A stretch of DNA of 64,000 nt from Candidatus Heimdallarchaeota archaeon (GTDB lineage: Archaea; Asgardarchaeota; Heimdallarchaeia; Heimdallarchaeales; Heimdallarchaeaceae). Made by a program: the position numbers and the translations under genes. The DNA is taken from positions 1 through 64,000 of the forward strand of contig DXJF01000114.1 in NCBI GenBank assembly GCA_019057375.1, given 5' to 3'. Position 1 is the stretch's first letter; every line of letters starts with the position of its first letter. The notes under the pieces were generated by a model. That model saw nothing but the letters and a program-made list of their open reading frames with translations. It searched no databases and was not told the DNA's origin. This document shows, one piece after another, positions 8,096-40,770 of this stretch.

Positions 8096-8487
8096 ACAAA
8101 AAAAGGTATATGAGAATAAAAATTTATTTTTCTAGTAGAGAAGACATTCAAATTTTCTTTTCATACATGTTATAAGTACTTCTCCCAATTAATCTAATAG
8201 CTTGTTTTCTTGATAGAAGACGTCTTACTAAGAATGTAGCAAATTTATTTGTAAAACCAGGAGTAAAACTTGGCCTTTTTCCTAGTTTAGCAAGTGATTC
8301 TTTTGCTACTTTCGTTGGATTCATAGGTTTAGGAACCAAAATTCCAGGATTATCGGGTTCTGTAGCTATATAGTTAGGTGTATTGGTGATTCCAGCTGTG
8401 CATGCTAAAACATCAATATTGTGTTTCTTAAGCTCAAACCATAACCCTTCTGCAAGTATGGAGTTGCTAGTTGCTGCATAATGAACG

Positions 8488-8710
8488 CACGTTATGAAAC
8501 TTGGTTAAACTTGCCAGAGGCTTTCTAACCGTCGTTTAAGTGGGTCCCCTCACGTGCGTTGAGGGGAAGTCATCCAGACTTTGTTCTGGAATAGTAAGTG
8601 GGCCTTCAGCATAGAGCTAGCTAGGCTCCCCGTTTCATGGTAAGTTTACTGAGAGACAACCACTTGTGTAGTTGCGAAACAGGTAGGTGCTGAAGCGCAC
8701 ACTATCTAGC
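8488..8710 (-). ncRNA. Putative omegaRNA-like structured RNA inside the element
   Basis: Lies downstream of a TATA box; multiple stems (CTTCAGCA/TGCTGAAG, CAACTAC/GTGGTTG, TCCAGA/TCTGGA, TCCCCTC/GAGGGGA); ends at the element right end. Confidence 0.55.
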
Positions 8711-8728
8711 TTTCTATGTGTACTTTCA

Positions 8729-8736
8729 TATATAAA
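8729..8736 (-). promoter_or_regulatory. TATA box TTTATATA inside the element
   Basis: Archaeal TATA consensus ~25 nt upstream of the structured region. Confidence 0.5.
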
Positions 8737-9439
8737 CCCGAAGAAAAAAAAACACCCATGCTTCTCTTTCCTACATCTCCCCATAACTAGGTAGAGGACG
8801 CATGGCAAGATTAGTCAACTTTACCACAAACAGTTGTGCACGGTCAAAGGATTACCTTGAAATCCAGCCATCGAACTAACTAAGATAATTCCACCTCTTT
8901 CTCTCTTCTTCATTAATTTACCAAAATAATCAACTAATGTTACAGGTCCTCTACAGTTAATATTAATAACATTAAAATGTTCTTCCAAATCAAAATCCAG
9001 AAATGGACCTATGGGAATGATTGCAGCATTATAGACCAACGTACCAATTTCAATATCCTTAGTATGCTCTTTTATAATCTTAATTACTTCTGAATCTGCT
9101 AAATCTGCACTAATTATTCGAACATGTACTCCATGTGTTTTTTCTATATCTCTTGATAATTTTTCAAGCAGTGGTTTTCTCCTTGCAACCAGAACAAGAT
9201 TGATGCCTTTATCTGCAAGAACCCTAGTAAATGCTTCGCCTATTCCTTGAGAACCCCCCGCAATCAGTGCCCAAGGTCCGTACTTTTGTTTGAATCGTTC
9301 TTTTTTCATATGCGAAACAGCTATCAATTGAAGTTTATTAAAAAGATTAAGTAAATTAATTTTACAAGATTTTATTGGAATGTTTCTAATGTTTTGGAAG
9401 AAGTTTGGTTAGAAAAAGGAGAAAGATGAAAAAGAAAAA

Positions 9440-38328: not shown

Positions 38329-38334
38329 AGAGTA

Positions 38335-38443
38335 TGGTGGGGCAGGCAAGATTCGAACTTGCGACTTCCTCCACTTTTTGTCTGTAGGTTTTCCACCTTG
38401 CAGATGTCAAGGAGGTATCATAGCCAAGCTAGATCACTGCCCC
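38335..38443 (-). tRNA. tRNA-Val(GAC) (allele B) with 31-nt intron (38375-38405), probably at 36/37; CCA encoded
   Basis: Full cloverleaf GGGGCAG...CTGCCCC A CCA; intron hairpin TCTG/CAGA plus AGGT/ACCT; relaxed BHB. Confidence 0.92.
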
Positions 38444-38478
38444 TTTTGCCGATAAGCTTTTCGCCTACTTTTCTTTCC

Positions 38479-38504: not shown

Positions 38505-38641
38505 TCCAGCTCTTTTAGTCAAGTAGACAAATTCGCAGAAAACATGGACAAGCTAGCCATATCCTTTGCAAGAAGTATAAACAGACAACAGAGAGGAAAA
38601 ACCCATCATAACAGAAGATTTTATCGAGTTTAAAAACCATT

Positions 38642-40594
38642 TTGTGGATATTGTTACTGAGTGAATTGGTCACACAAGCAACAAGTAAAACTCAAACAAT
38701 TATGTCTCCCTCGTCAAAGGGAGTGATGAGAAGTTATCAGGTGGTGCTCAAGTGTATAGACCAATCCCAAAGAGAAGAGATTAACCAGAGAATAAAAACA
38801 TTAGAAGAACAACAAAATCAGCTACTCACCCCTCAAGTTGTCAAGCAAGCAGTAGAACTCTATAGAACCAATCCCAAAGAAGGATTTTTCACACGCCAAC
38901 TCTGCAAAAAAGTAGGGAAAAGTCCAAATATTGCAGAAAGTGCTTTCCACTGGTTATACATAGCTATCAAAGGAAAGATAGATAAGGAGAAGAAAGTGGA
39001 AGGGTTATTGAGCTTTCTTTTGAAAAATCCTCAACAGCTGATAGAATGGCTGATTTTTGGTCGTTCCCCTTATACTGAGCGAAGTTTAGAAAACTATTGG
39101 AGACTAAAAAGAAAATATATCATTAACCTCCTCACCAGTACTAGATCCAAAACTGATTCCTATTGGAGAAAAAAACACAAACACAACTATTTTGCTGACT
39201 TCCTACAATTCAACGACTCCCTTCCTTTTACGTCACAAACTGATATCCTCCAAGCTCTTGATGATGCGCTGTTTTACTACAATCATGAATTTTCTCTCAT
39301 CCCACAGCTTACCAAAAATCAGAAAGCATTTCTGAAAAAACTCCAACTCTTAAAGAAGGAACAAAAAACTGTAGTACCTTTTCTCACTTCATGGATCAAA
39401 GGTCCTCAAACTTCTCGATGGAAAAGTCTCAAAACTCTCTCCGAACAACTAGCTTCAATTATAGGCAAACCTTCTCGAAAACTCTTTTCAGTAGTTAGAC
39501 TGATAATTGTTTTCACACTCTTTGATCATTACATGCAGAGTGTCCCTCAGTTAGTTAAGGCTCTCCCTATTGCTAATGTTGTTCCCCTACCATTTAAACG
39601 AAAAAAGAAAGGAAGATTACCAATCAAATTGCTAATGAAGAAAAACTATGTTATCACCCGTCAAGGGAATGCTCAAGAATTGACTGATCAGGTAAAAAAA
39701 CAAGGATGGACGGAATTTTGTTTTCCGCAAAAGGGAAAACAGCGACTAACAGCTCAAGTTCACTTTCCTAAAAAAGTAATAGGGTATATTGGAAATGGTG
39801 CACACTTCAAAGTCTTCCAAGTAAGTAGTGGACAAGCTCCTAGTTTCAAACCTAGGGTGGATGTGGTACTCGAAGGAGCTCATGCTTGCTTCCATTCATC
39901 CAAACTTCTTCACCGTTATCTTGCTAATGTTTCTGCAAAGAAAGCTTCTATTCTTGGAGTAGATATTAACCGCTTAGGACAGTATATGGTCGTGTTTAAC
40001 ACCCCTATCCCTCTGCCTCCAGATTTACTAAACTTAGCAGCACACTATAAACATCTCAGCACAAAAGTTCTGGATGAGTTGAACACAGGTTTTCTCCGTA
40101 AAAGAAAAGAGTATGATTCCCACGGGTGTTGTAAACTTAAAGGTGAACTTGACCGTGTTTATACTCGTCGCAGCCGCATCCTTCGCGAAATCACTTATCT
40201 CCTCCCCCACTTTCTTGCTGCAGTAATGGTGAAAAAGAAGTGTAAAGTGTTAAAGATTGAACGTTTAACTGTTGATCCTACCGGCACCAGAGGAGCTTTA
40301 GCTAAAGCTATTTACACCATGCCCGATAGTTTGTTCATTTACAAAAAAGCAGTGTGGTTAGCTTCTTTGGAGTTAGGGTATGATGTGCAGTTAGAAGCAG
40401 TTCACCCATATCATACCAGCACCATTCATTACGGATGTGGAGGTCTTCTTACTCGTCAAAAAGGTCAGTATGATGTTGCTCCTTGTAAAAAGTGTGGTCA
40501 AAAGGTCCCTACTCATGCTAATGCTGCCAAAAATATTGCTTCCCTTCAAGGTATCTTTCTTCCTCCCGATTCCTTCCCCTCAACGCACGTGTAG
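38642..40594 (+). CDS. tnpB: Large TnpB/Cas12f-like RuvC protein (likely start ATG 38702, 630 aa)
   Basis: RuvC-I ILGVDIN, RuvC-II VLKIERL, HPYHTS-x-HxxC...CxxC zinc finger, RuvC-III THANAAKNI. Confidence 0.85.
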   Translation: MWILLLSELVTQATSKTQTIMSPSSKGVMRSYQVVLKCIDQSQREEINQRIKTLEEQQNQLLTPQVVKQAVELYRTNPKEGFFTRQLCKKVGKSPNIAESAFHWLYIAIKGKIDKEKKVEGLLSFLLKNPQQLIEWLIFGRSPYTERSLENYWRLKRKYIINLLTSTRSKTDSYWRKKHKHNYFADFLQFNDSLPFTSQTDILQALDDALFYYNHEFSLIPQLTKNQKAFLKKLQLLKKEQKTVVPFLTSWIKGPQTSRWKSLKTLSEQLASIIGKPSRKLFSVVRLIIVFTLFDHYMQSVPQLVKALPIANVVPLPFKRKKKGRLPIKLLMKKNYVITRQGNAQELTDQVKKQGWTEFCFPQKGKQRLTAQVHFPKKVIGYIGNGAHFKVFQVSSGQAPSFKPRVDVVLEGAHACFHSSKLLHRYLANVSAKKASILGVDINRLGQYMVVFNTPIPLPPDLLNLAAHYKHLSTKVLDELNTGFLRKRKEYDSHGCCKLKGELDRVYTRRSRILREITYLLPHFLAAVMVKKKCKVLKIERLTVDPTGTRGALAKAIYTMPDSLFIYKKAVWLASLELGYDVQLEAVHPYHTSTIHYGCGGLLTRQKGQYDVAPCKKCGQKVPTHANAAKNIASLQGIFLPPDSFPSTHV

Positions 40595-40654
40595 GGGACC
40601 CATTCAAACGACGGTTAAATAGCCTCTGCAAGTTTAACCAAGTTTCATAACGTG
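40573..40654 (+). repeat. Element right end / 3' part of omegaRNA scaffold
   Basis: 82-nt repeat shared with 8488-8569; hairpins CCCCT/AGGGG and GGTT/AGCC conserved, with changes in the loop. Confidence 0.85.
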
Positions 40655-40708
40655 CGCCGACTTCCTCCACGTCAAGGAGGTATCATAGCCAGGCTAGATC
40701 ACTGCCCC
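40655..40708 (-). pseudogene. 5' fragment of intronless tRNA-Val(GAC) (allele A), truncated in the T-stem
   Basis: GGGGCAG TG ATCT AGCCTGGCTA TGAT A CCTCC TTGACGT GGAGG AAGTC GGCG, then the element end. Confidence 0.9.
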
Positions 40709-40744
40709 CTTTTATTGATAGGTCTTTCTTCGTTCTCTTCTTTC

Positions 40745-40770
40745 TTGTTTTCTTTAAATATTTTTTGTTA
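40745..40770 (-). promoter_or_regulatory. tRNA promoter block of allele A
   Basis: Minus strand TAACAAAAAATATTTAAAGAAAACAA; homologous to 38479-38504. Confidence 0.65.

Follow-up and report, generated by a model that had tools for sequence, protein, structure and literature searches.

Organisation of the locus

The window, i.e. the whole stretch of 64,000 nt that was analysed, lies in contig C65 of the assembly G000, which is 3.47 Mb in length and 89% complete. It contains a short-chain dehydrogenase (SDR) gene interrupted by a short element (Table 1). The N-terminal half of the gene matches adh_short (E 1.6e-26), and removal of the element results in a single SDR frame of 275 aa, reading PLTVHYAAT. 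Three sister genomes (G018, G010 and G006) encode uninterrupted orthologues, also of 275 aa, which read PLT(V/A)HYAA(T/S)K across the insertion point. The empty site of G010 (...AACTGT|TCATTATGCAGCA...) has a single CGT, whereas the filled site consists, in all copies, of a flank ending in ...ACCGT, an element ending in ...GTGCGT and the other flank. The element is inserted after ACCGT in the SDR gene. In G013 and G024, the closest relatives, a search for the empty site of the SDR gene revealed only a decayed C-terminal remnant.

The interrupted gene (8430-8484, minus strand) reads HYAATSNSILAEG, compared to HYAATKAYNIVLAEG in the intact orthologues. The interrupted copy lacks the catalytic Lys of the YxxxK motif and two further residues, at a distance of 17-30 nt from the point of insertion, pointing to decay of the gene once it was disrupted.

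Table 1. Features of the interrupted gene, the inserted element and the tnpB gene of the window
Feature	Position	Strand	Remarks
Interrupted SDR gene	8148-9327	-	Halves 8845-9327 and 8148-8484
Target / transposon-adjacent motif (TAM) ACCGT	8840-8844	-	Host SDR sequence, left flank; adjoins the left end in all 17 copies of family 1 (once as ATCGT)
Left end (LE), ~45 nt, terminating in AAGTTGACTAATCTTGCCA	8795-8839	-	Common to the tnpB-only elements of C92, C145 and C144 and the tnpA-tnpB element of G024
T9 run, directly upstream of the promoter	8744-8752	-	T-rich run (TTTTTTCT...) kept in both short-element families
TATA box TTTATATA, preceded by CGGG	8729-8736	-	Near-invariant across copies; fixed distance to the first helix in two element families
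5' RNA domain, four helices, ~118 nt	8591-8708	-	RNAalifold consensus and covariation
Helix P1	8687-8700 / 8598-8612	-	RNAalifold consensus
Helix P2	8676-8683 / 8629-8636	-	RNAalifold consensus
Helix P3	8656-8675	-	RNAalifold consensus
Helix P4	8614-8628	-	RNAalifold consensus
Conserved large bulge CUCUCAGU(AAAC), motif UGUCCCUCAGU	8648-8655	-	Between P3 and P2; RNAalifold consensus
Variable linker hairpin TCCAGA/TCTGGA	8564-8581	-	Present in the window copy, differs elsewhere, deleted in C81 and G017
Right end (RE), omegaRNA-like core	8485-8569	-	93% identical to 40573-40656
Predicted guide TCATTATGCAGCAACTAGCA	8465-8484	-	RE flank, SDR coding sequence; flanks of the copies diverge directly after ...GTGCGT
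TnpB-like gene, 630 aa from ATG	38702-40594	+	Candidate trans partner; own RE 40573-40656; weak Cas12f1-like TNB match
Mid-ORF island: hairpin ACACTCT...AGAGTGT (7 bp), then CCCTCAGTTA	39515-39553	+	Nucleotide identity of seven paralogues peaks here, 0.92-0.96

Ends and predicted promoter of the element

The insert comprises 355 nt (8485-8839, minus strand) and has no coding capacity apart from a non-conserved frame of 57 aa (8635-8808) that runs across the TATA box. Short elements of this kind and full-length, tnpB-bearing elements of 2.15 kb have in common the ~45-nt LE (..ACTGAG..AAAGTTGwCyAATCTTrCCA), the TATA box and the last 84 nt. In the second family of short elements and in the tnpB elements, the left-flank motif is ACCGT, ACTGT or ACCTT.

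The TATA box noticed in the first-pass annotation was found conserved in every copy of two families. It matches the promoter of the full-length tnpB elements (TCGAGTTTAAATA) in both position and sequence, and the bases upstream of it are similar too (CGGGTTTATATA in short elements versus TCGAGTTTAAATA in tnpB elements). Transcription is predicted to start near 8706, ~25 nt past the TATA box, judging from archaeal TATA spacing; both the promoter and the start site are predictions from sequence conservation. The tnpB elements possess only T4 at the position of the T9 run of the short elements, and this run may be an archaeal terminator shielding the cassette from host read-through.

The ~220 nt of structured sequence seen in the first reading between the promoter and the shared right end proved to be ~222 nt, running to 8485. 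The RNA of the window copy folds with -73.5 kcal/mol (z = -3.42), a value that none of 200 shuffles reached; the opposite strand folds at a similar energy with a weaker z of -2.42, a difference that does not decide between the strands. The RE-internal ACGACGGTT (8520-8528, minus strand) is complementary to the TAM and LE start AACCGTCGT (8836-8844, minus strand) in most copies, the window copy pairing only via ACGGT/ACCGT. The bulge CCCUCAGU of the 5' domain is complementary to ACTGAG(G/T)G of the LE. Covariation was not seen for either complementarity.

Copies, mobility and relation to IS607

A BLAST search of G000 yielded three short copies, seven full-length copies with a TnpB-like ORF of ~640 aa and some RE relics. 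The short copies are located in C65 (the window copy), in C81, and at the end of C49 and the start of C40, the latter two parts probably being one copy split by the assembly. Among 60 relatives searched, complete short copies are present in two Heimdall-group genera. The alignment of family 1 includes 17 complete copies from ten genomes, and at least 17 exist; all 17 occupy different sites with unrelated flanks. The short elements are 318-406 nt in length, with indels that are not multiples of three. In another species, a 99% identical copy occupies an unrelated site (L031), which shows that the family has been mobile in the recent past. There is also a second family of short elements, in which the ends and the promoter are the same but the 5' module is longer; several genomes have many copies of it, frequently at the ends of contigs.

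Relatives with transposase genes are informative as to the type of the element. Locus L129 of G024 comprises ACCGT, the LE, a TnpA of 198 aa (Resolvase, 8.4e-24; MerR, 9.4e-10), tnpB and the RE, and similar tnpA-tnpB pairs are found in G001, G005, G008 and G017. The ...CGT of the target and the ...CGT of the element end make up a common core. On the evidence of these relatives, the family is of the IS607 type, with a MerR-resolvase tnpA and tnpB. A Y1 transposase (PF01797) was not matched in G000 (89% complete), the controls being matched. The same 89%-complete assembly likewise yielded no IS607 tnpA, and the element may therefore be unable to move in this genome. Four stand-alone resolvase-domain ORFs of ~250 aa in G000 (C56, C127, C16 and C118; L086-L089) are not the family TnpA, being unrelated to it and not adjacent to tnpB.

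The idea of an IStron or another intron was rejected. There was no Rfam intron match, and the 19 scored sites are mostly intergenic, while the genic ones occur in both orientations, which makes an intron-like role unlikely. At L063 (G025:C21:23400-24100), a full-length tnpB element is nested in a mini-element, truncating it just past the 5' domain. The mini-elements of genus g2 (L035, L036, L055, L056 and L059-L061) carry a 13-nt insertion, UCAAGGGUGAAAC, directly after the hairpin H1 described below. This insertion gives the guide core an additional small hairpin; the one g2 tnpB RE that was aligned with these copies does not have it.

The right-end guide core

The core in the RE contains hairpin H1 (CCCCUCA, 8560-8566; UGAGGGG, 8546-8552), the loop of which, ACGCACG (8553-8559), pairs with the 3'-terminal 7 nt CGUGCGU (8485-8491) in a pseudoknot; an inner hairpin, GGUUAGA/UUUAACC, comes after H1. 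Among 61 distinct REs, compensatory double changes occur at four positions of the pseudoknot. The elements of a second TnpB clade (40-48% identity) have the same core plan in different letters: ACGCATG/CATGCGT and CGCATAC/GUAUGCG for the pseudoknot, CUCCUC/GAGGAG for H1. In 21 tnpB genes the core starts within the last codons (PSTHV), and DNA conservation jumps exactly there; no conserved structure upstream of the 84-nt core was detected in the last 300 nt of these genes. As far as the sequences tell, the RE is a TnpB guide-RNA core with a covarying pseudoknot adjoining the guide. In TnpB and Cas12 guides, a pseudoknot pairs the nucleotides just 5' of the guide with an upstream segment (PMC10097598), and the RE-core pseudoknot, by analogy, matches this conserved plan.

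The conserved RE terminus is ...AACGTGCGT (also given as ...CATAACGTGCGT), and for this reason the predicted guide starts at 8484. The first-pass annotation had placed the guide in the RE flank within the SDR gene, but its start has to be shifted by 3 nt, to 8484.

The 5' RNA domain

The four-helix domain between the promoter and the core is supported by covariation. In the 17 family-1 copies, 95.2% of the cells are paired, compared to 91.5% in shuffles, and 9 of 31 pairs are changed on both sides, a covariation score reached by none of 500 shuffles. When family 2 is added (27 copies, model-fitted alignment), the values are 94% versus 82%, with 19 of 31 pairs changed on both sides and, again, 0 of 500 shuffles reaching the covariation score. 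Two of the stems proposed in the first-pass annotation, CTTCAGCA/TGCTGAAG and CAACTAC/GTGGTTG, are the covariation-supported helices P1 and P3. The third, TCCAGA/TCTGGA, does form a hairpin in the window copy, but it is variable or deleted in other copies.

P3 holds two near-fixed G-U pairs, which would be C-A on the other strand, so that the fold is specific to the sense strand. IS607 elements transpose as double-stranded DNA; taken together with the sense-specific fold, this means that the 5'-domain fold is best read as RNA.

The first-pass annotation had also drawn a crossed, pseudoknot-like pairing between the 5' part and the RE, composed of GTAAACTTACC/GGCAAGTTTAAC and ATGAAAC/GTTTCAT. 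These segments are complementary in the consensus, where 86.5% of the cells are paired as against 14-47% with a slid partner. However, the 17 pairs do no better in the 17 copies than in shuffles (86.5% versus 86.8%), and they show 0 compensatory changes and many one-sided breaks. ATGAAAC pairs locally instead, with CCTGTTTC in P2. In four copies P2 co-varies to GAACC/GGTTC, with GTTTCAT unchanged: ATGAAAC has become UUGAACC together with the change of CCUGUUUC to CUGGUUC, and P2 is kept. GTTTAAC also pairs locally, with GGTTAGA, in a hairpin that shows one compensatory change.

The covariance model of the domain, R1, matches short elements only. It gave no match in the full-length loci, in the 3' flanks of clade-2 tnpB genes or outside the two genera (101 genomes). 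A comparison with Rfam, at gathering and permissive thresholds, returned only tRNAs and chance matches and no family for the element. Readings as a hammerhead, a C/D-box or a tRNA-like RNA were dropped, as judged from the junction and motif layout.

The tnpB gene and its mid-ORF motif

The C-terminus of the TnpB encoded at 38702-40594 can be aligned with a Cas12f chain and has His where the RuvC-III Asp would stand. His occupies this canonical position across the whole TnpB family, which has seven paralogues in the genome. Rearranged RuvC sites have been described for archaeal branches (PMC10691335). The RuvC-III His may represent either a rearranged or a dead site, and DNA cutting is unproven. 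A decayed C-terminus of an IS607 TnpA lies upstream of the gene (38505-38640; ..MDKLAISFARSI..RQQRGK versus ..MIALVTSFAGRLHRQRRGK in intact relatives). As only this remnant is left, the window tnpB copy has lost tnpA and the left end. The copy is flanked by an intron-like tRNA (minus strand) and its partial intron-less duplicate (38330-38445, 40655-40770). Its RE abuts tRNA sequence, and clade-2 elements of relatives abut the tRNA T-arm (L100, L103 and L106).

The island at 39515-39553, with codons SVPQL, is the most nucleotide-conserved stretch of the tnpB ORF. It is the sole tnpB counterpart of the 5' domain, contains the motif seen in the 5'-domain bulge and is found in every clade-1 tnpB. 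The 11-mer TGTCCCTCAGT occurs eight times in the genome (six times in tnpB, twice in short elements), compared to ~0.6 expected from an estimate based on base composition. In tnpB of genus g2 the motif is kept, including third codon positions, at ~61% amino acid identity; it is absent from clade-2 tnpB. The mid-ORF site has no R1 score and no unusual fold, and only ~45-60 nt are collinear with the 5' domain. A profile HMM of the family-2 5' modules found no match in the genome, and hence the homology of the 5' domain to the mid-ORF site depends on the short motif only. The earlier statement that the 5' part has no counterpart at the tnpB locus therefore holds for the fold, which R1 does not find there, but the hairpin and TGTCCCTCAGTTA are present mid-ORF, and the LE and TATA box are shared as well. 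It is plausible that the 5' domain arose by internal deletion of a tnpB element.

Proposed nature and function of the element

The insert is a protein-less, non-autonomous mini-IS, or MITE-like derivative, of an IS607 tnpA-tnpB element of the Heimdall group of Asgard archaea, with a predicted omegaRNA that is probably used in trans. From the parent it has kept the left end, the TATA promoter and the 84-nt RE with the pseudoknotted core; the place of the genes is taken by the ~118-nt four-helix RNA domain. It was probably moved by a serine-recombinase TnpA supplied in trans. Transcription may start downstream of the TATA box, traverse the 5' domain and the RE core and continue into the flank, giving an omegaRNA with the adjacent SDR sequence TCATTATGCAGCAACTAGCA as the putative guide. 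A TnpB from one of the seven full-length copies might load this RNA and cut the restored empty site, ACCGT followed by TCATTATGC..., and this would help the mini-element to be retained or copied again. The target of TnpB would have the form ACCGT plus TCATTATGCAGC..., with ACCGT as the adjacent motif.

A complete, promoter-driven omegaRNA acting in trans was one of the two readings offered by the first-pass annotation, and the anatomy as a whole fits it. Published observations point in the same direction: stand-alone omegaRNAs serve compatible effectors in trans (PMC10691335), and PATEs often encode omegaRNAs. Against this explanation we count the RuvC-III His, the negative search for an IS607 tnpA in the 89%-complete assembly and the finding that ISDra2 can do without the sequence 5' of the core (PMC10097598). 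The tnpB-bearing parents do not have the 5' domain and do not need it. Most likely it takes the place of the mRNA context, either as an accessory or stabilising domain or by offering TnpB a further contact.

The conserved motif allows a stronger role to be considered. The hairpin with UGUCCCUCAGU, which the parents encode in the middle of the ORF and the mini-elements carry joined to the core, might be a second protein-recognised part of the guide RNP, or an RNA switch competing with H1, the 5' strand of which is likewise CCCCUCA; this we regard as rather unlikely. If true, the mini-elements would be hyper-parasites whose guide RNA is improved and self-contained. A related reading is a bipartite guide, a looser version of the tracr-like idea of the first-pass annotation, in which the hairpin and UGUCCCUCAGU are a true second part of the TnpB RNP, situated 1 kb upstream in the tnpB mRNA and joined to the core in the mini-elements, with no repeat:anti-repeat pairing. 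The invariance of the motif in both short families argues for it, as do the nucleotide-conserved island of every clade-1 tnpB, with third codon positions fixed, and the joint absence of the motif from clade-2 tnpB and of the 5' domain from the clade-2 3' flanks. However, there is no covarying pairing between the module and the core, the ORF site shows neither an R1 score nor an unusual fold, its conservation could be at the protein or DNA level, and the motif is missing from clade-2 elements, although their core is the same. The bipartite guide appears unlikely.

The domain could also be a passenger, an independent small-RNA gene carried on IS607 ends, with the RE serving recombination only and not as a TnpB guide. 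It has its own promoter, is absent from the tnpB parents and is joined to the core by a linker that is variable and can be deleted. This reading is nevertheless improbable, since all short copies keep the full 84-nt core, including H1 and the pseudoknot, which reaches well inside the recombination end; besides, there is no terminator between the domain and the core, and Rfam has no match.

Another reading places the conservation at the DNA level, the recurring words (TGAGGG/CCCTCA in the LE, mid-ORF site, 5' domain and RE) and the folds serving TnpA binding or synapsis instead of an RNA function. TGAGGG-like words do recur in the LE, the tnpB 5'UTR, the mid-ORF site and the RE, and ACGACGGTT of the RE is complementary to AACCGTCGT of the TAM and LE. 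But the helices covary as the sequence changes, the near-fixed G-U pairs would become C-A if the opposite strand were folded, serine recombinases transpose double-stranded DNA, and the tnpB elements transpose without the domain, all of which makes this reading very improbable.

Finally, the other reading of the first-pass annotation, a split tracrRNA/crRNA guide representing a TnpB-to-Cas12f intermediate, draws on the consensus complementarity described above and can be dismissed as extremely improbable, because the crossed pairing equals the shuffle mean without a compensatory change, ATGAAAC belongs to the covarying P2 and GTTTAAC to a local hairpin, the modules are contiguous in every copy, and in both clades the tnpB parents possess this ~84-nt core but lack the 5' module. 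The mini-element does not show such an intermediate.

Comparison with known systems

The preferred reading, a mini-element with a guide RNA used in trans, has several implications. It describes a recently mobile IS607/TnpB mini-element with its own predicted promoter-driven guide-RNA cassette in the archaeal lineage closest to eukaryotes, and it comes with a covariation-backed secondary structure for the compact ~84-nt guide core of unusually large TnpBs of ~640 aa. The 5' domain and the mid-tnpB motif are a testable oddity: does the domain help a gene-less element to compete for the nuclease?

The relatives with a MerR-resolvase tnpA and tnpB resemble IS607 TnpA/TnpB and CboIStron (10.1101/2023.11.20.567912). 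As in CboIStron, the end of the omegaRNA scaffold equals TAM nucleotides, CGT here and GG there. In CboIStron, TGGG and ...UCGG have a common core, and the serine recombinase needs matching core dinucleotides; an engineered mini-IS consisting of the ends only can be mobilised, and its omegaRNA functions in trans for IS607 TnpB (10.1101/2023.11.20.567912). Unlike CboIStron, the present elements have no group I intron and no bias towards the sense orientation in genes, their TAM is ACCGT and not TGGG, and their TnpB is ~640 aa in length with His at the canonical RuvC-III position.

With the omegaRNA of ISDra2 (PMC10097598) the element shares the pseudoknot that joins an upstream loop to the nucleotides immediately 5' of the guide, the overlap of the scaffold with the 3' end of tnpB and the separability of the sequence 5' of the core. 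The core differs from that of ISDra2 in its length (~84 nt versus 116 nt), and there is neither sequence similarity nor an Rfam family. The 5' extension is a conserved fold here, not a dispensable mRNA remnant.

In kind, the element resembles stand-alone omegaRNAs and PATE-like elements of the IS605 family (PMC10691335; 10.1101/2023.03.14.532601), which are protein-less and present in multiple mobilised copies. Like these, the short elements have the ends of effector-bearing elements of the same genome and an RE guide scaffold with the flank as guide; by analogy, use of TnpB in trans is expected. Stand-alone omegaRNAs and PATE-like mini-elements are a kind already described. The present elements differ from them in being Asgard archaeal and IS607-type (serine recombinase) and not IS200/IS605 (Y1), and in possessing a dedicated TATA promoter, an upstream T-run and an extra covarying 5' domain of ~118 nt that is absent in the tnpB parents. 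What is new is that the setting is archaeal and of the IS607 type, that a T-run accompanies the dedicated promoter, that there is a conserved extra 5' domain and that this domain has a motif in common with mid-tnpB.
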